Origin: Pseudomonadota bacterium
GTDB lineage: Bacteria; Pseudomonadota; Gammaproteobacteria; Burkholderiales; JABEVD01
DNA length: 56,963 bases
NCBI GenBank assembly: GCA_021845885.1
Contig: JAJZVB010000001.1
Location: 1-56,963 of the forward strand
Direction: 5' to 3'
Part shown: positions 21,506 to 56,963 of the stretch, one piece after another
Numbering within the stretch: the first letter of the stretch is position 1
Layout: every line of letters starts with the position of its first letter
Program-made: the position numbers and the translations under genes
Notes under the pieces: generated by a model
The model's input: only the letters and a program-made list of their open reading frames with translations
Told to the model about the DNA's origin: nothing
Databases searched by the model: none

Positions 21506-22807
21506 TCAGTTCGATCCGGCCTGGATGTCATCCTGCCGGCCTTTCCTGGGAATTCTCTTGCATAGCGATTCGATGACCAGCCTGGATATTCTCGGGTTAA
21601 AATTCATCAATCCTTCGAACATTTGCGGGGTGAGTGTGAACAAGAAGCAATCCGATTCCGCCAAAACCGTTGCGCTGCGCCGCTCTCCAAGAAGATAAGC
21701 GAGTTCGCCGAATATCTCGCCTTGTTTCACTTCACCTAATCTGATCCGTGCTCCCCGGTTTTCGTCATAGACCCCGACCTTGCCGGAATACAGGAAGTAG
21801 ATCGTCGAGGTGTCGTCATCTTGCCGGATGACGACTTCTCCCTTGCGATAGGAATGACCGTATTTCTCGAAAACCCGCTCGGATCGCTTGAAGAGGAAAT
21901 GCTCGATCTGTTCGGCCAGTTTGCTTCTTTCTTCGGTTTCCAGAAATAGCTTTTCCAGCGCAATCACATCTATTTTGCCGGTGACATAAAGAAATTCGGC
22001 GTACAGCAGGAATACGATGCTGATGACATAGGCCCAGATCATGGCGAAAATGATTGCGCCAAGCGGCCCGTAAACCCGTATATATTGGTCAACCTTGAAA
22101 ATGGTGTTCGTAAGGAACTGCAGCAACGCTATGGACAGCGCGCAAAGAAAGCCGATTCCGATTGCCGAATTGAGCGCCGGCTTCTTGGGAGGAATGAAGT
22201 AATAGGCCAGGAAAGCGATTGCCCAGATCAATAGAAACGGCGCCAGCGCATTGATGAAAGTGAAGATGGATTTCAGGGTTTGAGCGAGGGCCGGGTTATC
22301 GATGCCCGCATAATCCATGTGGACGACAAGATAATCCCCGAGCATAGACAAACCCAGTATCAGGAATGAAAAGGGGATGATCAAAAAAGAAATCATGTTG
22401 ACAGTAAAAAAACGCCTCTTTCTTGAGCCGGCAAATATCACCGTGAATGCCCCTTGAACTGAGCGCATGAGCCCCTTCGAGCTCCAGAACAACACCAGAA
22501 TGCTTACCCAGTTGGTGACCTTGAAGAGCCCGTAAAATTTGTCGGTGCTTCTCGAAAAATCGACATCCATGAAATTGAGGTGCAGCGTGTTGAGCAGGAA
22601 ATAAAGCGCCTCGCTGGGTTCCGGGCTGCCGGAAATGATTGTGTTGAGGATGTAGGCGAGGGGAACGGCGGACAGAAGGAAATAATGCGCCATCGCCGAT
22701 GCGTGATTTGGAATCTCAGTCTTGAAGAAAAGGTTTAACGTGACGTAGGCAGACTGGGAGAGCCAGTTCCCCTTGTCACGAACGAAATGAGAAAAATGGT
22801 TCATCAC
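21506..22807 (-). CDS. YihY/BrkB-family membrane protein fused to a C-terminal cyclic-nucleotide-binding domain
   Basis: The N-terminal ~280 aa is polytopic, with the YihY-like AMAHYFLLSAVPLAYIL. The C-terminal ~130 aa carries the cNMP-binding signature GEIFGELAYLLGERRSATVLA. Confidence 0.75.
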   Translation of the reverse strand: MMNHFSHFVRDKGNWLSQSAYVTLNLFFKTEIPNHASAMAHYFLLSAVPLAYILNTIISGSPEPSEALYFLLNTLHLNFMDVDFSRSTDKFYGLFKVTNWVSILVLFWSSKGLMRSVQGAFTVIFAGSRKRRFFTVNMISFLIIPFSFLILGLSMLGDYLVVHMDYAGIDNPALAQTLKSIFTFINALAPFLLIWAIAFLAYYFIPPKKPALNSAIGIGFLCALSIALLQFLTNTIFKVDQYIRVYGPLGAIIFAMIWAYVISIVFLLYAEFLYVTGKIDVIALEKLFLETEERSKLAEQIEHFLFKRSERVFEKYGHSYRKGEVVIRQDDDTSTIYFLYSGKVGVYDENRGARIRLGEVKQGEIFGELAYLLGERRSATVLAESDCFLFTLTPQMFEGLMNFNPRISRLVIESLCKRIPRKGRQDDIQAGSN

Positions 22808-23250
22808 GGCAGCTGCAAAAGGATCTTGACATCCTTTTCATCCTTGCTTAACTGGTTGGCGCGGATATAGCCAATCGCCCCGGGAATGCTGCGAACGAAA
22901 TTCAGCACGGCCTGGTCCGAAGTCTGAACGGAAGGAGGGAGCTTGCCTTGAAAACGAAGGCGATTCCAGTAATCCGAAAGTTGTTGCGGTGAGAGATTGA
23001 AGATTTCCTTGGAAAATTCTTCCCGCTCCGTGCTCGCCACTTCGCGGTTGACCGGTATTACCTTGATTCCATTAGACCAGTTCTGTTTTTTCATGATGTA
23101 AATGTCAGCCAATTCCTTGACCGATACAGTATTCTCCGGAACAAGCGCCGACGCAATGATCAGCAGCTTTTCGGCACGGGCAGACAGGGCCCATGTCATC
23201 CCCAGAACCAGAAGCAAAGCGCGCCTCAAAATAGGGTCGAGAAAGAGCAT
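22804..23250 (-). CDS. Small periplasmic PstS-like/PBP-like domain protein
   Basis: Signal peptide, then ...VSVKELADIYIMKKQNWSNGIKVIPVNR...SIPGAIGYIRANQL, which resembles the phosphate-binding-protein-like fold. ATGA overlap with the downstream gene. Confidence 0.55.
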   Translation of the reverse strand: MLFLDPILRRALLLVLGMTWALSARAEKLLIIASALVPENTVSVKELADIYIMKKQNWSNGIKVIPVNREVASTEREEFSKEIFNLSPQQLSDYWNRLRFQGKLPPSVQTSDQAVLNFVRSIPGAIGYIRANQLSKDEKDVKILLQLP

Positions 23251-24296
23251 CTCACCCCTGTAAGAATAGGCGCAAATGACGTCGGCATACCTAACTGGCG
23301 GACGTATTCGAATTTCCAGATGATGTATGAATTGGGCTTGAAATCAATGCCGAGCAGCGTATTTCTGGATGGCTGGCTTACAAAGTGATCCTGGTAGCGC
23401 TCCCATTCCACGATTCCGTGCCACTTCGGCGTAAATGAATAATCGGCAAGTCCAAAAATCCCCGATTCATGATCATGCAACCTAAGTGGGGCGCCCGGCA
23501 GCGTCGCGCCGGAAAAACGGGAGGTGATCGCTTCGCTCTCCAGCATCAGATTGCCAATCGTCTTGATGGCATTGAGTCCATACACGGTATACATCTCGCC
23601 AGTTTCGATGAGCTGGCCATGCTGGAAAGATGCACCGATCTTGTCAATCAATCCAAATGGCTTATTGATGTGTGCTCCGGTTACATTGTGGAAGTTTCTC
23701 ACGGTTTCTCGAAGTGGCCGCTTGAACCACTCATTTTCAGGTTGCCAGTATATTTGCAGGTCCGGGGTTTCGCCGTCTTGAAGATCGTATATCCAGTTGA
23801 ATCCGCTTTCATTGGAGTCGAAGCCTTGCGCAGTCGTGTTTGGGCGGGTAATGGTTGGGACAAGCGGCGGGGCAAACACCGTGTTCCAGTCGCCGAGAGG
23901 CGTCAATATCTTGCCTATGCGCAGCGTGTCATGATCGGTCAAAAGCGCATCATTATAGAGCCGCTCGACGACGATGTTGCCGTGGCCGGGATTGCCGTCC
24001 TGACGGATCAGGGTATGATGGGCAAACTCGATTTCCGTGAAGGGATTGAACCATCGCCCTACGCGGCCCCCGATGAAGAAACTGAGGTCATCCAGCGAAA
24101 GTTTTGCTGGCATGCCGAATTGGTCTTCAAGTTCGATGCTGGTATAGCCAGACAAGTAATAATCGCCGTAGCGCAACCCCTGGCCGAATTCATAAGGCAG
24201 CTGCGTTCCCCCGGTGCCCGTGTTATCGGCATCGCATAAGGGTGAGAATAGGAGTCCGAACTGAAGAAGCGCTACCTGAAAAAGTTTGGGGTGCAT
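23226..24296 (-). CDS. Putative outer-membrane beta-barrel protein
   Basis: I prefer the start at M29 (cat at 24294..24296), which gives the signal peptide MHPKLFQVALLQFGLLFSPLCDA. It has alternating aromatic and hydrophilic strands and a C-terminal ...CSFSTLF ending in Phe. Confidence 0.6.
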   Translation of the reverse strand: MHPKLFQVALLQFGLLFSPLCDADNTGTGGTQLPYEFGQGLRYGDYYLSGYTSIELEDQFGMPAKLSLDDLSFFIGGRVGRWFNPFTEIEFAHHTLIRQDGNPGHGNIVVERLYNDALLTDHDTLRIGKILTPLGDWNTVFAPPLVPTITRPNTTAQGFDSNESGFNWIYDLQDGETPDLQIYWQPENEWFKRPLRETVRNFHNVTGAHINKPFGLIDKIGASFQHGQLIETGEMYTVYGLNAIKTIGNLMLESEAITSRFSGATLPGAPLRLHDHESGIFGLADYSFTPKWHGIVEWERYQDHFVSQPSRNTLLGIDFKPNSYIIWKFEYVRQLGMPTSFAPILTGVRCSFSTLF

Positions 24297-24443
24297 GGTC
24301 TTCCATAATCTAGGGCAGTTACTGACATTGGCTTTCCACGATGCGCTGACCGGTCGAAGTCGACAGGCGATGAAGCGCACGGATGCCTCGAATTGCCTCC
24401 CTTCTTGGTTTGTTATGGCTTATTCTTAGAATTATGCGGGTTG

Positions 24444-49831: not shown

Positions 49832-49953
49832 GAAACGCCGCAGGCCAACATGATCTTCTCCAGCGGGCCAAGAAAAGGGGATAATGTAAAGGCATGCGCC
49901 CGTCTTGCTCTTGGGTTCGGCAACTACAATTGCGATATCGCTAACAGGCCTCG

Positions 49954-51114
49954 ATGATGCATATGTTTAAAGAATTCCTTGATGCTCGTGCCGATGGTTT
50001 CCCAGGACCGGCCTTTGGGAGCGAGACTGATTTTTGGGATCAAGTTGTCCACTCCATACGCGAGGAATACTTGTCCGAAGTCCAGGATTACCCCTGGATT
50101 ATCGGTTTTTCTGGCGGCAAGGATTCGACCGTTGTTGCCCAGGCCGTTTTCGAGGCCTTGCTGCAGATCCCGCCATCCCGGCGAAAGCGACATGTCCATT
50201 TGGTATCCAACGATACTCAGGTAGAAAGCCCGCTGGTCATGGCGCACCTCATCAAAGTGCAAGCTGCGATTGCCAGCATGGCTGAAAGCTTTCGTATGCC
50301 TGTCACGGTCGTGACGACCCGTCCGGCTCCAGATAAAACTTTCTGGGCGCTGTTGATTGGCAAGGGCTACCCCAGCCCGAACCAGACGATGCGCTGGTGT
50401 ACCGATCGCCTGAAAATTCTGCCGACCAGCCGATACATTTTGGACAACGTATCCGCCCATGGCGCGGCCATCGTGGTACTGGGCGTGCGCCTTGACGAAA
50501 GCGACAGTCGACGCAACTCCATCAACAAGTTTCGAAATCTCGCTGGGTCGGACCTCACGCCGCACAGCGAGTTGCCGGGGGCGTTCATTTATCGCCCAAT
50601 CGTTCATCTCACGGTGGACGACGTTTGGGAAGTACTGGGCCGTTGCCAGCCCCCATGGGGAGGAACGCATCGAGACCTGATTCAGTTGTACCGGGATGCC
50701 GAAGGGGGCGAATGCCCAGTAGTGTTGAGCAAGGATGAGGCACCGGGGTGCGGCACGTCCAATAGCCGGTTCGGATGCTGGACGTGCACCGTGGTCGACA
50801 AGGATAAAAGCATTCAGGGATTCATCGATGTCGGCAATCACCACTTCAAAGCCCTGGTGGACTTCCGGGACTGGCTCAAAGAAATTCGCAACAAGCCTGA
50901 ATACAGGCAGGTGGAACGCAGAAATGGCCGGACCCAATTTGATCTTGTTACCGGCAAGCATATTCCAGGGCCTTTCACCATTCAGGCGCGCAAGATGATC
51001 CTTGACCGTCTGCGGGAAACGGAGGAAGAGTTTGGCGGCCAACTTATCAGCAAGGAAGAGATAGACATCATCGAGTCGACATGGGCCGACGAACTGGTTC
51101 AGAAGGGGGAATAG
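49954..51114 (+). CDS. DndC-like PAPS-reductase/PP-loop, Fe-S sulfurtransferase-type protein (short form)
   Basis: PP-loop IIGFSGGKDSTVV, then RWCTDRLKILP and the Cys cluster GCGTSNSRFGCWTCTVVDKDKS typical of DndC. At 386 aa it is shorter than canonical DndC. Confidence 0.85.
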   Translation: MMHMFKEFLDARADGFPGPAFGSETDFWDQVVHSIREEYLSEVQDYPWIIGFSGGKDSTVVAQAVFEALLQIPPSRRKRHVHLVSNDTQVESPLVMAHLIKVQAAIASMAESFRMPVTVVTTRPAPDKTFWALLIGKGYPSPNQTMRWCTDRLKILPTSRYILDNVSAHGAAIVVLGVRLDESDSRRNSINKFRNLAGSDLTPHSELPGAFIYRPIVHLTVDDVWEVLGRCQPPWGGTHRDLIQLYRDAEGGECPVVLSKDEAPGCGTSNSRFGCWTCTVVDKDKSIQGFIDVGNHHFKALVDFRDWLKEIRNKPEYRQVERRNGRTQFDLVTGKHIPGPFTIQARKMILDRLRETEEEFGGQLISKEEIDIIESTWADELVQKGE

Positions 51115-51118
51115 GATA

Positions 51119-51319
51119 ATGCCAGAAGTGTATTTGGGTGATCTGCCGCTATGGTCGGACAACGAAGCCAGAGACGTAATGGAGAAATTGTGTCAAAAAC
51201 ATAATGTTCCTGTGGATGTGTTCACAGAGCTTGTGGCAATTCAACGCCATAACCAAGACAGAAGCAAGGCGTTTGGTATTTATGACGCCATCAGCGAAGC
51301 CTTGAGCCGGATGGATTGA
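51119..51319 (+). CDS. 66-aa ORF resembling the detached C-terminal tail of DndC
   Basis: It starts 4 nt after the DndC-like stop, in a different frame. ...ARDVMEKLCQKHNVPVDVFTELVAIQRHNQDRSKAFGIYDAISEAL recalls the helical C-terminal segment of full-length DndC. That comparison is from memory only. Confidence 0.45.
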   Translation: MPEVYLGDLPLWSDNEARDVMEKLCQKHNVPVDVFTELVAIQRHNQDRSKAFGIYDAISEALSRMD

Positions 51320-51328
51320 AAGAAATTT

Positions 51329-53377
51329 ATGTGGATTTCCCGGCTTGAACTCATCAATTTCAAAAGCTACCAACATCAGGTTTTTGAGTTTCCTTCCCCC
51401 AGTCAAGGCAAGAACATCATTCTCATAGGTGGGATGAATGGCTACGGTAAAACGACCATTCTGGAAGCTCTCTATCTTGGGCTCTATGGTAAAGACTCCA
51501 TCATCCACCTTGCCCGCGCTGGCATCAAAGGTGACGTGGGCTACCCGGTTTTTCTTGAGCGTGCCTTGCACGGTCATGCATTAAAAACCAAACGCGATAC
51601 CATGAGTGTATTGGTGCAAATCAATACCAACGAGCATGAAGGCTTTCAGGTCACTCGCAAGTGGTTTTTTTCACCCAAAGGCGATTGGAGAGATGAAGAA
51701 ATTCTGATCTACGATATCCGTGATGGCATTCGTACCCAAACTCGCAATGCCGATCAGATTGAAGAAATATTGGATCAATATTTTGTTCCTGCCCATTTGG
51801 CACCATTCTTCTTCTTTGATGGTGAAGAAGTGAAACGTTTGGCCGACCATAACCGTGTTGAGCAAATCAAAATGGGCATGGAAGGTTTGCTTGGCGTGGT
51901 TCTGCTCCGCAAATTAGAAACCAGGTTGCAGCAGTATCAGGCTAACAAGAGCCAGGGTGTACCAAAAGTCGATGAAGAAAAACACCGTCAATTGTTGGAG
52001 GAACTTACTCAGCACGAGCAACTGCTGGAAGAATCGCAACAGAGGAAAATGAAGACTCATGAGGAACTGGATGTACTCAAAACCGAACGTAGTAATTTGA
52101 TGCACCGTATCATGGCACTTGGGGGTGGTGGCGGCGATATTGCAAATGCTCGAGACATCGTTGAGGAATTGACCCGCGCGGAAATTGACCTGAAAGAATG
52201 CCAGGACGATGTGGAGCAGGTATTGGGGTCCAGTCTTTCATTCCACTTGATTTCACGGGAAATTCGTAACGCTTATGTGAATCAGCTGAAGGCTGAAGAA
52301 GAACGTATTAAGTGGGACACCCGCAAGCACAGCCTGGAACCGGATAAAGAGAAATTTGTTTCGCGTTTTTTCGCGGATGATGCGCCAGCGTTTAATCCTG
52401 ACCTTACTAGCGAGCAGCACACGACGATTACACACCGCCTAGAAACTGCATGGGAAAGCCTGTTTTATCCTTTACCAGATGGCTGTGCGGAAGAAATCAT
52501 CCACGATTATGTCCATGGCGCGAAACGCCAGCAGGTTATTGGCATGATGGAAAATTTAAGCATCGGTGCTCAGGACATACTTGGCCTTCTGGAACGGCGG
52601 GATAACCTCCATGAGAAGATTCGCAACCTTCGCAACCGTCTGGCCAAGATTGAGGGGATTGACCGAGATGGAACATTGGCCGGACTCAATACCGAAATGA
52701 GTACCATACATGTCAAAATTGACCAGAAGCAGCACGAACTAGGGGCAATCGAGAAGCATGTTTCCTCACTTCAAATCAACATCAACAACGAACGTGCCAA
52801 CTATCAGCGCGAACATGAGAAGTTTCTGAAAGCAAATCCGGTAAAATCGGATGTTGCTCGTGCAGATAGGGTATGCAAATTGATTGAGGAACTGGTTCCC
52901 AGCCTTTATGCGCTCAAGACAAACCGCTTAGCCTATGCCATGACTAACGTTTTCCAGCAACTATCACATAAGAAGCAGGTGGCGCGAATTGAAATTGATG
53001 AAACAGGGAAATCCCGTCTCATTAGCTTTGAAGGCGACGAAATTACATTTGATAAATCTGCTGGTGAAGACCAGTTATTTGCCACTTCGCTGCTAGCAGG
53101 GCTGGCCGAAATCTCCGGTATTAAGGCACCCTTGGTGGTTGATACGCCGTTGGCACGCCTGGACAGCAATCACCGCAAAAACATCTTGAATTACTGGGTT
53201 TCTGATAAGAGTCGACAAGTATTTCTGTTGAGCCAGGATAAGGAAATTGACGCGCAAGTTTACAATGAGCTACAGGACAGCATTGCGCAGTCATACCTGC
53301 TTCAACACCAGCAAATCGGTAATGGCGTGGGTATGACAGTAGCCACCAAGAACGCCTACTTTGGAGGCCAGCGATGA
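51329..53377 (+). CDS. DndD-like SMC/ABC-type ATPase
   Basis: N-terminus MWISRLELINFKSYQ...LIGGMNGYGKTTILEALYLGLYG, a long coiled-coil middle, and a C-terminus KSAGEDQLFATSLLAGLAEISG...LVVDTPLARLDSNHR...VFLLSQDKEI. This is the DndD family layout. Confidence 0.85.
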   Translation: MWISRLELINFKSYQHQVFEFPSPSQGKNIILIGGMNGYGKTTILEALYLGLYGKDSIIHLARAGIKGDVGYPVFLERALHGHALKTKRDTMSVLVQINTNEHEGFQVTRKWFFSPKGDWRDEEILIYDIRDGIRTQTRNADQIEEILDQYFVPAHLAPFFFFDGEEVKRLADHNRVEQIKMGMEGLLGVVLLRKLETRLQQYQANKSQGVPKVDEEKHRQLLEELTQHEQLLEESQQRKMKTHEELDVLKTERSNLMHRIMALGGGGGDIANARDIVEELTRAEIDLKECQDDVEQVLGSSLSFHLISREIRNAYVNQLKAEEERIKWDTRKHSLEPDKEKFVSRFFADDAPAFNPDLTSEQHTTITHRLETAWESLFYPLPDGCAEEIIHDYVHGAKRQQVIGMMENLSIGAQDILGLLERRDNLHEKIRNLRNRLAKIEGIDRDGTLAGLNTEMSTIHVKIDQKQHELGAIEKHVSSLQININNERANYQREHEKFLKANPVKSDVARADRVCKLIEELVPSLYALKTNRLAYAMTNVFQQLSHKKQVARIEIDETGKSRLISFEGDEITFDKSAGEDQLFATSLLAGLAEISGIKAPLVVDTPLARLDSNHRKNILNYWVSDKSRQVFLLSQDKEIDAQVYNELQDSIAQSYLLQHQQIGNGVGMTVATKNAYFGGQR

Positions 53378-54906
53378 GTGATATCAGTTTGGAAAATGTG
53401 CTGGTCTCCAATTTCCAGACCAGTGCTGAAGCTGACAAAATTACCGAAATGCTAAAAGGAAAGTTGGGTCTTTCCGTGCGATATCGTGTCGCTCGTCTTG
53501 CCATTGGCCGCTCGCTGGGCGAACCAAATTTCCCTACGCAAAATGCGGATGCCCAAGGGAAAACTATCAAGGGTGATTTGCTGTTCGGATTGGATGAATA
53601 TCCATTGTGGGTGGGGTTACTCATCACTAACATCAAGAACCACATCCCAAAAGCGGAGCTTACGATTGCAACTTTACAAAATGCGGTCAGGCGACATTGG
53701 CAGCGGGGCATCATGCTTTTGCTGGATGACTGGAACGAAGCGGGCGAAGATCCTCGAAAGTTTTGGGAAATATTGATTCATCGCCGGGCCATGCTGCCCG
53801 ATACTGTTTCCAGGCCGGACAAGTTTGGTGAGGTACATCGTGGTGAAGAGATGGGATTCACTGGGACAGCCAAGGCTATCCATGTCGAGTTGGGGAAGGG
53901 GATGGATGCCCCATACGAACAGTACATACGTCTGGTGAATGGTGTGGGTACTTCACCGCATATGGCAATTATGGGGCAGTCCGGCTCTGGTAAGACCCGT
54001 ATCATGAAAGAGGTATTGAAGCAGATCCATATACAAACTACTGCACCAGTAATTTTGCTGGACCTGGGTAAGGGTGACTTGGCCAACGATACGGCATTGA
54101 TTGACACATTGGGAGCGAAAATCCTGCGTGTTCCCGAGGACGGTATTCCGTTGGATATGTTTTACGGCTCCAAGCAAAATGATGAGGTAGCTACTGACAC
54201 AGTGATGAGCTTTCGTGACTCCTTCTCTAATGTGGTGCAAGGTAAGCTGGGACCGAAACAACTGGACAATCTACGGGAAGCCCTAAAGCCGCTGTTTTCA
54301 ACCCAAGAAAAAATAACGCTGGAAGATGTGCGCTCGTGGCTTGACCAGTTCTATGAAGAGAATGACTTGAAGATGGACAGCGTAATGTCCACCATCAACG
54401 ATCTGACGCAATATACGATTTTTAGGCCAGACTATTCACCCCTGCAATTTTTCTCACAAAGTTGGATTATCACTTTTGCCCATGCTCACGACACCATCAA
54501 AAATCTGGCGGTTTTCTTGCTGATGGATGCGTTAAACACATACATGAAGCGCTTACCAGAGGCACCACAAGACAGTGAAGGGCATCGCGCAATCCGTCTG
54601 GTTCTCGCTGTGGATGAAGCACGCCACCTGTTGTCATCCAGGCATGACGCCTTGAGCGACAATATCCGCCTGCATCGCTCCAAGGGCTTGGTGGTTACCC
54701 TTGCTTCGCAAAGTCCCGATGACTACGATGGCAAGAGCGATGATTATATGGAAAACATTGGATTGCCTATCTGTTTCAACACGAACGCTGTGGCTACAAA
54801 AGTGCTCCAGAACATGTTTCGGGGCAGGGTGAGCTTTTCCTCTCTCCCGCCTGGCGTATTCATGACTGTGAAGGATTCGAAGCCTATAAAGGTAAAGGCT
54901 TTTTAG
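53374..54906 (+). CDS. Fusion protein: DndE-like N-terminal domain + HerA/FtsK (DUF87)-type P-loop ATPase
   Basis: ATGA overlap with the DndD-like gene. Residues ~10-135 (FQTSAEADKITEMLKGKLGLSVRYRVARLAIGRSL...GDLLFG...AVRRHWQRGIMLL) follow the DndE pattern as I recall it. These are followed by Walker A IMGQSGSGKTR and Walker B RLVLAVDEARHLL. Confidence 0.65.
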   Translation: MSDISLENVLVSNFQTSAEADKITEMLKGKLGLSVRYRVARLAIGRSLGEPNFPTQNADAQGKTIKGDLLFGLDEYPLWVGLLITNIKNHIPKAELTIATLQNAVRRHWQRGIMLLLDDWNEAGEDPRKFWEILIHRRAMLPDTVSRPDKFGEVHRGEEMGFTGTAKAIHVELGKGMDAPYEQYIRLVNGVGTSPHMAIMGQSGSGKTRIMKEVLKQIHIQTTAPVILLDLGKGDLANDTALIDTLGAKILRVPEDGIPLDMFYGSKQNDEVATDTVMSFRDSFSNVVQGKLGPKQLDNLREALKPLFSTQEKITLEDVRSWLDQFYEENDLKMDSVMSTINDLTQYTIFRPDYSPLQFFSQSWIITFAHAHDTIKNLAVFLLMDALNTYMKRLPEAPQDSEGHRAIRLVLAVDEARHLLSSRHDALSDNIRLHRSKGLVVTLASQSPDDYDGKSDDYMENIGLPICFNTNAVATKVLQNMFRGRVSFSSLPPGVFMTVKDSKPIKVKAF

Positions 54907-54916
54907 GGGAGGCGCA

Positions 54917-55423
54917 ATGACAAAGGAGGTACCTTTAGAAGAAAATGAAATTAAAAAAACTCCCATGACTCCAAGTTGGATCGCTTTCTGGACAGCCTTA
55001 ATTTATGCTTTTGGGGTACTCATATTAGGCGGTGGCGCAGGCATTTGGCTACCTGCTGTTATGCCGACTAAATCCGTTGGGATCGATGCATTAACTACTT
55101 TTTCGATGGCTACCTTGACACCTATTTGCGTTGATTTGATGCTTGACTTAGATGTGTATGGCCGCAAGTTATCGAAGCTTTGGCGCGTTTCCCTTGTTGT
55201 TGGATGCATATTTGCTGGCACATTGGCAATAATTGCCCTTGTTCGGGAGAAGGCCGCTGGTGAGTGGTTGGCAGGAGTCTTCTCGGTGATCTTATCTGTG
55301 GTAATTTGGATTACTTTTGCGATGAAATCAGAACGGTTTCTACCTGATGGTTCCAAGACCGGTTCGATTGGTGGGGATAGGCCAGAAACCTCTAACTTGA
55401 ATGGCACTGGGTTACCCGCATGA
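54917..55423 (+). CDS. Small integral membrane protein (~4 TM helices)
   Basis: Hydrophobic segments WIAFWTALIYAFGVLILGGGAGIWL, LTTFSMATLTPICVDLML, VSLVVGCIFAGTLAIIALV and LAGVFSVILSVVIWITFA. A 4-nt overlap joins it to the next gene. Confidence 0.65.
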   Translation: MTKEVPLEENEIKKTPMTPSWIAFWTALIYAFGVLILGGGAGIWLPAVMPTKSVGIDALTTFSMATLTPICVDLMLDLDVYGRKLSKLWRVSLVVGCIFAGTLAIIALVREKAAGEWLAGVFSVILSVVIWITFAMKSERFLPDGSKTGSIGGDRPETSNLNGTGLPA

Positions 55424-56652
55424 GCGAATATCCACAGATATTGGGTGTTAATCGTCCGGCCATTAGAGTCGTTCAACCTTTGGGAACATTCTACGCATTT
55501 TCACTAGGCGCAGATGTTTTGAATAGAATCACGTATTCTCAGCCCGCCGAAGTTATGGAGCGCATGGAGCGTGAAACGGACGATAGTAAAGGTGGGTACT
55601 CTATTTTTGGCACGCAGCGCCTTGAAAATAAGAAGCGCTTAGATGAAATTGCATCTTTTATTCGCACAACTGAAGCGACATTTCCCAATGCCATTATTCT
55701 GGCGGCCAATTATGACCAAAACGGCCAATATATTTTAGAGGAAAACACGGACCGTAGGTGGAAAGTCGACGGTCTTCCAGATGGCCCATGGACTTTGCAT
55801 ATACCCTCACTCACAGAACGATCAGCATCTATTATCGATGGCCAGCATCGGTTGCATGCATTCGATAAGCTACCCATAGATGCCCCAGAGCGGGCGATGG
55901 AATTGTTGTGCGTTGTTTTTCTTGAACTCCCAACACCTTACCATGCTTATGTTTTTGCAACTATCAATTTTAACCAGAAGAAGGTAGATCGTAGTCTGGC
56001 CTACGAGCTATTTGGGTTTGATGTGGATGAGCGTCCTCCTCGCTTTTGGTCTCCGGAGACATTAGCTGTTTATTTGACAAGATTAATGAACACAGAAAAA
56101 GAATCGCCACTGTTTCGTTCGATCTTTCCTGCAGCAGATTCCGACAAGCTGTTTCCTAATACCGATGAGCAAGCAAACGAGGACGTGCGTGTCTCCATGG
56201 CAACGATTGTGGATGGTATTTTGAGACTGATCTCAAAGAATCCAAAAGAAGACCGAAACCTCGTCCGTCGACCGGAAAACAAAGCGCTTGGTCGGGAGAG
56301 TCTTGCTCCGATTAACGGTGTACCGTTACGTGTGCTGTATATTCAAAGTAATGACAAAGCCATTTATGATCTGCTTTGCAATTTCTTCTCAGCCGTTCGA
56401 TCTAAAATTTGGGCCACTGCCGGAAAGGGCTCCTACTTACGTAAAACCGTAGGCATTCAGGCGCTATTCGATGTATTGCGTGAGCTTCTGGTATCGATGC
56501 CGATTACTGCTACCAATTTTTCTTATGACAATTTGGGAAAGATCCTAGAACCGTGCTCTGATTTGGATCCGGAGGGAGATAAGTACGAAGCATCCGGTAT
56601 TGGTAAAAGTGAGATCAAGCGCGATTTGTTGCGCGCCCTTGGTAAGGGCTGA
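55420..56652 (+). CDS. DGQHR-domain protein (DndB-like, ParB/Srx-fold family)
   Basis: Exact motif SIIDGQHRLHAF, preceded by GTQRLENKKRLDEIASFI and FPNAIILA and followed by FATINFNQKKV. This is the DGQHR/DndB-type signature order. Confidence 0.85.
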   Translation: MSEYPQILGVNRPAIRVVQPLGTFYAFSLGADVLNRITYSQPAEVMERMERETDDSKGGYSIFGTQRLENKKRLDEIASFIRTTEATFPNAIILAANYDQNGQYILEENTDRRWKVDGLPDGPWTLHIPSLTERSASIIDGQHRLHAFDKLPIDAPERAMELLCVVFLELPTPYHAYVFATINFNQKKVDRSLAYELFGFDVDERPPRFWSPETLAVYLTRLMNTEKESPLFRSIFPAADSDKLFPNTDEQANEDVRVSMATIVDGILRLISKNPKEDRNLVRRPENKALGRESLAPINGVPLRVLYIQSNDKAIYDLLCNFFSAVRSKIWATAGKGSYLRKTVGIQALFDVLRELLVSMPITATNFSYDNLGKILEPCSDLDPEGDKYEASGIGKSEIKRDLLRALGKG

Positions 56653-56734: not shown

Positions 56735-56963
56735 TCAACTCAACATCTCCATCAACACCGGATGCCATTTGGAAAGCTCGATCTCACCCATCTTTCCAGC
56801 CAGGCGACGTTTATCCACAGAGCGAAGTTGATCGAGCAAAATGCGCGCTGGTTTACCCGCAAACATGACCTCCGGGCGACTACCCAAAGGCTGTCCCTGG
56901 CTGGTCAGCGGCGCTATGATGACACGCGGCAGCGCAGCATTCAGGTCATCTGGCGAAACCACC
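56735..56963 (-). CDS. MazF/PemK-family type II toxin (N-terminus beyond the right edge of the window)
   Basis: ...VIIAPLTSQGQPLGSRPEVMFAGKPARILLDQLRSVDKRRL is the characteristic PemK/MazF C-terminal core. The frame is open to the end of the window. Confidence 0.7.
   Translation of the reverse strand, partial: VVSPDDLNAALPRVIIAPLTSQGQPLGSRPEVMFAGKPARILLDQLRSVDKRRLAGKMGEIELSKWHPVLMEMLS

Follow-up and report, generated by a model that had tools for sequence, protein, structure and literature searches.

A six-gene locus in a Burkholderiales contig resembles an intact Dnd DNA sulfur-modification cluster with a split DndC and a DndE-HerA/FtsK fusion

The window analyzed here, positions 1 to 56,963 of contig JAJZVB010000001.1 (assembly GCA_021845885.1; Pseudomonadota, Burkholderiales), carries close to its 3' end a six-gene locus that, as read from its genes, is an intact copy of a Dnd DNA sulfur-modification cluster; comparative genomics has already catalogued the subtype to which it belongs. 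An earlier note on this DNA, made from the sequence alone, had described six tightly packed, same-strand open reading frames (ORFs) forming one operon, and its coordinates proved exact and its one-operon reading holds: the genes are separated by gaps of 4, 9 and 10 nt or joined by ATGA stop/start overlaps (two instances, ORF3/ORF4 and ORF5/ORF6). The six genes are as follows.

ORF1: 49954..51114, + strand, 386 aa; DndC core, a PP-loop ATP pyrophosphatase/[4Fe-4S] sulfurtransferase minus the usual C-terminal ~60 residues.
ORF2: 51119..51319, + strand, 66 aa; small protein (Pfam Sp-DndD), the detached DndC C-terminal domain.
ORF3: 51329..53377, + strand, 682 aa; DndD-type coiled-coil ABC ATPase with no CxC zinc hook.
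ORF4: 53374..54906, + strand, 510 aa; DndE (residues ~14-120) fused to a HerA/FtsK-type P-loop ATPase (~190-510), written E::HerA below.
ORF5: 54917..55423, + strand, 168 aa; four-helix membrane protein, fast-evolving, partner of the DGQHR gene.
ORF6: 55420..56652, + strand, 410 aa; DGQHR protein (ParB/Srx superfamily) of TIGR04172, 'DNA phosphorothioation-associated DGQHR protein 1'.

For comparison we assembled sixty related loci from genome assemblies and two plasmid loci (cited by L number), in which genes were located with tblastn. Ratios of nonsynonymous to synonymous substitution (dN/dS) for genes 1-4 against relatives range from 0.04 to 0.11, and the core of the system is thus under strong purifying selection. 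ORF1 matches the DndC profile TIGR03183 with 349.9 bits (cutoff 290.4; profile positions 4-364 of 447) and the PADLOC DndC model with 391.6 bits. It has the SGGKDS motif at residue 53, CWTC at 275-278, and cysteines at positions 149, 254, 266, 275 and 278, as expected from its initial description as DndC-like; its dN/dS is 0.06-0.11. A sequence search of the PDB with ORF1 returned no match.

The 66-aa ORF2 had been counted in the earlier note as an additional gene (c'), a view that several comparisons contradict. It belongs to the Pfam family PF20306, Sp-DndD (53 bits, cutoff 27.2), with its gene inside the Dnd operon, and it also covers the final ~50 positions in each of three DndC profiles (TIGR03183, 396-445 of 447; PRK06850, 406-456; PADLOC DndC, 406-455). 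A hidden Markov model (HMM) built from 15 ORF2 homologues matches residues ~381-448 of unsplit, 439-456-aa DndC-like proteins from Bacteroidota and Limnohabitans loci (E 5e-6 to 6e-4), and profile-profile alignment of the ORF2 family with DndC (hhalign) gives a probability of 88.6% (E 2.7e-6, 56 columns). Loci with a long DndC have no small gene, while those with a DndC of ~370-400 aa do. ORF2 is thus the split-off C-terminal domain of DndC rather than an extra component. Its dN/dS is 0.04-0.08 against the closest relatives (L003, L007, L010) and rises to 0.22 in more distant pairs; because of this strong purifying selection, it can be regarded here as neither disordered nor fast-evolving. ORF2 also weakly matches the PADLOC model (PDLC02708, E 0.0015) of PbeB, the small protein of PbeABCD, which hints that PbeB-type small proteins may likewise stem from the C-terminal domain of DndC.

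ORF3 was correctly recognized at the outset as a DndD-type ATPase, with 284 bits against TIGR03185 (cutoff 245.85; profile positions 1-639 of 650), a Walker A sequence (GMNGYGKT) at residue 35, the SAGE signature at 577, DTP at 605 and a dN/dS of ~0.05-0.06. Its top PADLOC match is the model labelled PbeC (PDLC02733, 808 bits), followed by DndD (320 bits). A CxC zinc hook at the coiled-coil apex is the defining feature of the PbeC/CxC clade. No C-x-C occurs in ORF3, and there is none at the apex in 35 full-length homologues, among which the sole instance is at residue 726 of a 728-aa ORF (L036), at the extreme C-terminus. We rejected PbeC as a system label for ORF3 given the missing hook, the absence of PbeA and the presence of DndC.

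The architecture proposed for ORF4, a DndE-like N-terminus followed by a HerA/FtsK-type ATPase, is borne out by matches to PF08870 (DndE; 30.5 bits, cutoff 25; residues 14-120, profile positions 2-107 of 111) and PF01935 (DUF87; 24.2 bits, cutoff 23.2), with AAA_22, AAA_10 and HerA_C also matching; the N-terminus of this fusion is the only DndE domain present. In PADLOC, ORF4 scores best against the DndH C-terminal ATPase (65.8 bits; positions 1367-1673 of the 1715 in the profile). Walker A (GQSGSGKT) lies at residue 201 and DEA at 414; GQSGSGKT and LAVDEARH are invariant in 14 diverse homologues, as is a RLHRSKG...ASQSP block that may hold the arginine finger and sensor. Relatives of ORF4 form 285 clusters at 90% identity, and in a 50%-identity library there are 597 clusters at E<=1e-3 and 87 at E<=1e-30, mostly proteins of ~500-520 aa matching over their full length. 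A PDB sequence search with ORF4 gave matches at the level of the P-loop only.

The last two genes encode a membrane protein and a DGQHR protein. The AlphaFold model of ORF5 (predicted local distance difference test score, pLDDT, 64) has helices at residues 19-48, 56-76, 87-109 and 116-138 and a disordered tail, in agreement with the roughly four transmembrane (TM) segments first proposed. ORF5 matches no Pfam or NCBIfam family at threshold, has 18 detectable homologues compared with 1486 for ORF6, and is 38% identical to its L007 orthologue (dN 0.67), where neighboring genes are 82-87% identical. An ORF with 2-4 TM helices lies directly upstream of the TIGR04172-type gene in 8 of 8 distinct loci scored. 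ORF6 was described initially as a DGQHR, DndB-like protein. The motif is indeed present (residues 140-144, invariant in 22 homologues), but 'DndB-like' is imprecise: ORF6, in the same operon as dndC, dndD and dndE, scores 483 bits against TIGR04172 (cutoff 450) and also matches TIGR03187 (209 bits) and PF14072 (34.7 bits), with no match to TIGR03233 (DndB) at E<0.1. Its AlphaFold model (pLDDT 74) has an N-terminal alpha/beta, ParB-like domain and a confident C-terminal helical domain. PADLOC gave no SspE match for ORF6 and has no DndI model, and a PDB sequence search with ORF6 returned one chance match.

A gene-neighborhood search on the fusion, as suggested in the earlier note, showed that the arrangement recurs. 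The core of dndC, (small-protein gene), dndD and E::HerA is present in most of the ~60 related loci, and at least four other genomes have all six genes in this order. Core order is kept in Nitrosomonadales, Burkholderiales, Rhodocyclales, Methylococcales, Chromatiales, Desulfobacterota and Bacteroidota, and the core is also found on the Methylorubrum extorquens AM1 megaplasmid (Alphaproteobacteria) and on a conjugative plasmid of Burkholderia glumae; Cloacimonadota are also among the groups with related loci. In Acidovorax sp. JS42 the six genes occur in the same order, with an unannotated 162-aa ORF at the position of the membrane protein; this operon is on an island beside an integrase gene, and its E::HerA is interrupted by an insertion sequence (IS).

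While the core is conserved, the genes that follow E::HerA are a swappable 3' cassette, for which we distinguish five types. (a) In the window and in L007, L012, L014, L015, L021, L024 and L052, a 150-195-aa protein with 2-4 TM helices is paired with a TIGR04172-type DGQHR protein. (b) Ten loci have a soluble protein of ~171-194 aa with a different, more DndB-like DGQHR protein of ~415-427 aa; the small protein has an invariant GIY-YIG signature (G..Y, Y.G, R, E), matches PF01541 in 6 of the 10 cases and has the UvrC nuclease domain as its best, though weak, PDB match. (c) The Bacteroidota have ParB_N, an unknown protein, a PD-(D/E)xK protein (DUF6602) and an Mrr-type nuclease. (d) A HATPase_c_3 protein and a putative O-methyltransferase lie downstream in L011 and L055. 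(e) Nothing follows the four-gene core in M. extorquens AM1, B. glumae and others. In L003, the closest relative of the window (94-97% identical), genes 5-6 are gone and an IS fragment marks their loss.

The G+C content of gene 1 is 0.554 and that of genes 2-6 is 0.456-0.487, below the 0.56 found across the remainder of the window, and the greater part of the operon is thus foreign to this genome; an identical operon is present on two other, independent metagenome contigs. DndC is 75-80% identical in relatives (L012-L019) whose DndD and E::HerA drop to 55-61%. This gap, together with the G+C break at the junction of dndC and the small-protein gene, suggests mosaic exchange of a D-E specificity pair; the pair seems to have been exchanged, or to be diversifying independently of DndC.

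In ten loci (L004, L006, L008, L027, L028, L030, L033, L053, L055 and L059) a gene for 311-331 aa occupies the place of the small-protein gene and of part (N-terminal) or all of dndD, for example L008:7915-8850. The N-terminus of its product matches the sulfur-binding domain (SBD) SBDHga1 (PDB 8H0L, E 1.4e-11) and the C-terminus HNH_2, which is the architecture of a phosphorothioate-dependent type IV nuclease. Residual D-derived ORFs of 369, 304, 222, 175, 159, 157 and 91 aa remain, with none left in L027 and L033. The start of the HNH gene overlaps the dndC stop, and in L027 and L033 its stop abuts the start of E::HerA. HNH genes have a synonymous divergence (dS) of 0.36-0.56, compared with 0.7-1.4 for E::HerA, and this lower divergence suggests that the HNH cassette spread recently into these operons, where dndC and E::HerA remain intact (dN/dS ~0.04-0.05).

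Other arrangements dispense with DndC or add further genes. L048, L049 and L050 (Cloacimonadota/Bacteroidota) have D-E::HerA pairs with no DndC within the contig, preceded by three genes for ~210-245 aa, the first with an Mrr_N winged-helix domain; L048 additionally has an Sp-DndD-like small gene. The three are a DndC-less use of the same D-E::HerA scaffold. A conserved gene for 847-890 aa converges on the end of the system in L011-L014 and L016 (betaproteobacterial and other; e.g., L014:13215-15827, - strand), and a separate 900-aa ORF (L061:11056-13758, - strand) follows the four-gene core on the M. extorquens AM1 megaplasmid. Neither the 847-890-aa group nor the 900-aa ORF has a Pfam or PADLOC match; these proteins could be uncharacterized partners of the system.

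The earlier note held the architecture to be undescribed, which it is not. A DndE-HerA/FtsK fusion beside a DndD-related ATPase is described, within Dnd phosphorothioate-modification systems, in Rakesh, Aravind & Krishnan 2024 (PMC10853773), which credits the fusion to Krishnan et al. 2020 (NAR 48:10045), assigns the 'clade-3' HerA/FtsK label, and already notes URI/GIY-YIG, HNH and restriction endonuclease genes around Dnd cores. TIGR04172 was defined by the Haft group in 2011 as a 'satellite family analogous to DptFGH' (PMC3226654), PF20306 already covers the small-protein family, the order is that of Acidovorax sp. JS42, and the Prokaryotic Genome Annotation Pipeline (PGAP) names the genes of the plasmid copies dndC, 'DNA modification system-associated small protein', dndD and 'DNA translocase FtsK'. 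No experimental work on this subtype, on the fusion or on the small protein came up in our literature search. The accessible text of the literature, Krishnan et al. 2020 excepted, describes neither the pair of a 4-TM protein with TIGR04172 nor the small protein as the DndC C-terminus; the split-DndC origin of the small protein, the strict TM/TIGR04172 pairing and the TM/GIY-YIG alternation may be new.

How might such a locus work? The reading that we favor, to which we give about an even chance, is that of a phosphorothioate writer that uses the housekeeping cysteine desulfurase IscS and is joined to a modification-sensing accessory/effector pair. The locus would have been acquired horizontally and would be an intact representative of a Dnd subtype that recurs, with genes 1-4 forming a sequence-specific DNA phosphorothioate writer. 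The split DndC would take persulfide sulfur from host IscS in trans and insert it into the DNA backbone, while the DndD-type ABC ATPase and the DndE DNA-binding domains would select and hold the target site. DndE would deliver DNA to, or receive it from, the fused HerA/FtsK translocase, predicted to be hexameric; because of this fusion, the writer is probably coupled to ATP-driven DNA pumping, and the motor could serve for processive scanning of DNA or for engaging DNA in motion. The earlier note had reported the window to lack a cysteine desulfurase and any known restriction partner, and we likewise found no desulfurase active-site motif (regular-expression search of the long ORFs of the window) and no PADLOC match to Dnd, Pbe or Ssp restriction components in the ten other large window ORFs tested. 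The absence of dndA therefore stands, but it is not unusual: PMC10853773 gives dndA in only 32% of Dnd-bearing taxa, and IscS stands in for DndA in Salmonella and E. coli (PMC11662687).

In the favored reading, ORF6 would act as a ParB-like DGQHR NTPase that reads the modification state of DNA, as do the DGQ(Q/H)R domains of SspE and DndI, which are phosphorothioate-sensing NTPases controlling a nuclease (an attached one in DndI; PMC11662687). ORF5, translationally coupled to ORF6, would be the output (a membrane-damaging or abortive effector) or an anchor. The initial interpretation already included a possible combination of modification and a sensing/effector module, and the 3' cassette agrees with it: the position upstream of the DGQHR gene is filled by a 2-4-TM protein in 8 loci and by a GIY-YIG-like protein in 10, which, given phosphorothioate sensing by SspE and DndI, favors a sensor (ORF6) with an effector (ORF5). 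The Bacteroidota nucleases (ParB_N with PD-(D/E)xK, and Mrr), the four-gene-only loci and the precedent of a DndI nuclease driven by phosphorothioate sensing point the same way. Phosphorothioate chemistry is supported indirectly by the SBD-HNH gene found in the place of dndD in ten related loci. A more ambitious version, which we consider unlikely, is that genes 5-6 are a new kind of phosphorothioate-status reader, with the DGQHR NTPase gating an abortive-infection membrane effector interchangeable with the GIY-YIG nuclease of sister loci, that the HerA/FtsK-fused DndE makes a translocating machine of the writer, and that the ORF2 tail is an adaptor docking DndC onto the DndD/E scaffold, which would also explain the Pbe-type small proteins.

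Several points weigh against the writer-plus-sensor interpretation. The DndE domain of ORF4 falls below the NCBIfam TIGR03184 cutoff (21.3 vs 71.85 bits), and the best PADLOC model for ORF3 carries the PbeC label. The role proposed for the motor is conjectural, and phosphorothioate in the host DNA is predicted from gene content. The ORF5 model has low confidence and the protein no family match, so it could be a mere anchor. A Foldseek search with the ORF6 model gave nothing at E<=0.001, with weak, non-significant ParB-like matches (PadC, Spo0J, BrxU), and ORF6 has no recognizable nuclease domain, with no HNH/DUF1524 match in Pfam, NCBIfam or PADLOC. Canonical DndB, the nearest characterized standalone DGQHR protein, is a transcriptional regulator, and by analogy a regulatory role would be equally natural for ORF6.

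This last point leads to the main rival, a real possibility although we lean away from it: the writer would be the same, with ORF6 as a DndB-like negative regulator or dosage controller and ORF5 tethering ORF6, or the whole machine, to the membrane. ORF6 shares the layout of DndB (N-terminal ParB-like DGQHR domain, helical C-terminal domain, ~400 aa, PF14072 'DndB'), and the lack of a detectable nuclease domain fits a regulator; in Salmonella, according to work cited by PMC10853773, DndB acts as a repressor modulated by ATP. The four-gene-only loci indicate that the pair is dispensable, like DndB, which the same paper reports in 51% of taxa, and FtsK/HerA-type motors are often membrane-associated. 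Set against this are the missing TIGR03233 match, the definition of TIGR04172 as a satellite family (PMC3226654), and the translational coupling of ORF6 to a partner whose place a GIY-YIG-like nuclease can take, which would not be expected of a regulator. The far faster evolution of ORF5 compared with ORF6 is also more in keeping with a conflict-facing component.

We regard it as improbable that the DndD-E::HerA scaffold, with DndC-like chemistry, makes a product other than phosphorothioate, as the earlier note had allowed, or serves mainly in DNA-capture defense. In favor, Rakesh et al. (PMC10853773) argue that modifications of other kinds, cytosine methylases for instance, can be recruited by the DndD/E core; Cloacimonadota relatives have D-E::HerA without DndC, L011 and L055 have HATPase_c_3 and putative O-methyltransferase genes downstream, and the HerA/FtsK domain is closest to that of the restriction protein DndH. 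A different product is nevertheless disfavored by an ORF1 that exceeds the trusted DndC equivalog cutoff with PP-loop, CxxC cluster and all other motifs intact, by the association of phosphorothioate-reading SBD-HNH genes with the same locus type, and by the operon itself, in which Pfam, NCBIfam and PADLOC profiles found no methyltransferase or other modifying enzyme.

A PbeABCD/CxC-type restriction module in place of a Dnd writer, to which the PbeC score of ORF3 and the weak PbeB match of ORF2 would point, is very improbable given an ORF3 family with no apical CxC hook, a TIGR03185 score above cutoff, the presence of DndC, the description of the partner ATPase of E::HerA as 'DndD-related' (PMC10853773), and no PbeA, in which an HKD nuclease is joined to an SF2 helicase, either within the operon or among the ten other large window ORFs tested. 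It is scarcely credible that the operon is non-functional, the decaying remnant of a mobile island, since, despite its foreign G+C content (0.46-0.49 vs 0.56) and the IS damage in sister loci (L003, Acidovorax JS42), its six ORFs are intact, their junctions coupled, the dN/dS values of genes 1-4 low (0.04-0.11) and the motifs invariant.

Upstream of the operon are housekeeping genes (mpl, HSP20, GGDEF-EAL, argB, a HAD hydrolase and a SlmA-like TetR). Downstream, a PemK/MazF-type toxin gene (PF02452, 38 bits; window 56735-56962, - strand) converges on the operon and is cut by the window end; on contig L002 the toxin (102 aa) is followed by a short upstream ORF, presumably the antitoxin, and the Dnd island would thus be flanked by a toxin-antitoxin pair. 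A 412-aa antisense ORF (49924-51162, - strand) that spans all of dndC is almost certainly a by-product of composition and not a gene. A tRNA scan for an island attachment site found no tRNA, and a promoter/terminator scan gave matches no more numerous than, or fewer than, those in shuffled sequence. Elsewhere in the window, in a stretch of lower G+C content (0.50-0.53 at 21-24 kb), a gene at 21506-22807 (- strand) encodes a 433-aa protein with a BrkB/YihY membrane domain and a C-terminal cyclic-nucleotide-binding domain, a possible cyclic-nucleotide-gated membrane effector for which no cyclase was identified. Its PADLOC PycTIR/TIR match was rejected, as it reflects the shared cyclic-nucleotide-binding domain only and not TIR. 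The adjacent 384-aa ORF (23226-24380, - strand) has no Pfam match.

The subtype bears on how Dnd proteins come to locate and modify just a subset of their target sites, and on how phosphorothioate marks are read without DndFGH. It would unite, in a small and self-contained set of genes, a writer that carries its own DNA motor, a DndC whose natural split reveals a domain boundary, and a swappable reader/effector cassette. It is experimentally tractable, as there are culturable carriers (Acidovorax sp. JS42, the M. extorquens AM1 megaplasmid and the B. glumae plasmid), and the present window contributes an intact six-gene example.

Among named systems, DndFGH shares with this locus the ATPase of ORF4, which is most similar to the DndH C-terminus (PADLOC), while the other DndH domains, DndF and DndG are all absent here. 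PbeABCD/CxC-ABC systems likewise combine a coiled-coil ABC ATPase, a DndE-family partner and a small protein, and their PbeC model is the top match for ORF3; the present locus differs in having no CxC hook and no HKD-helicase PbeA, in the presence of DndC and in the fusion of DndE to HerA/FtsK. SspABCD-SspE and IscS-DndBCDE-DndI resemble it in the ParB-like DGQxR domain adjoining a phosphorothioate writer, and the GIY-YIG-like gene before the DGQHR gene in sister loci would be a functional analogue of the DUF262 and HNH fusion in SspE and DndI. In contrast to those proteins, ORF6 has no HNH/DUF1524 domain and is partnered with a membrane protein, and the writer is of the Dnd rather than the Ssp type (SspD only 41 bits).

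Canonical DndABCDE/DptBCDE systems (Streptomyces lividans, Salmonella Cerro 87) have homologous DndC and DndD, a probably homologous DndE, a DGQHR protein and, as would be expected here, a need for a cysteine desulfurase, possibly housekeeping IscS. Here, however, DndC comes in two pieces, a motor ATPase is fused to DndE, dndA and DndFGH are absent, and the DGQHR protein, which is TIGR04172 rather than DndB (TIGR03233), is encoded last in the operon and has a membrane protein as its partner. The closest counterparts are the DndD plus DndE-HerA/FtsK systems (Krishnan 2020; Rakesh 2024), with which the locus shares a DndD-related ABC ATPase directly upstream of the fusion, a HerA domain closest to that of DndH, and an Sp-DndD small protein and DndC in the same operon. 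There is no essential difference between these systems and the present locus, which is not a new class of system and is instead one more representative of a Dnd subtype that is known from computational description and is experimentally untested.

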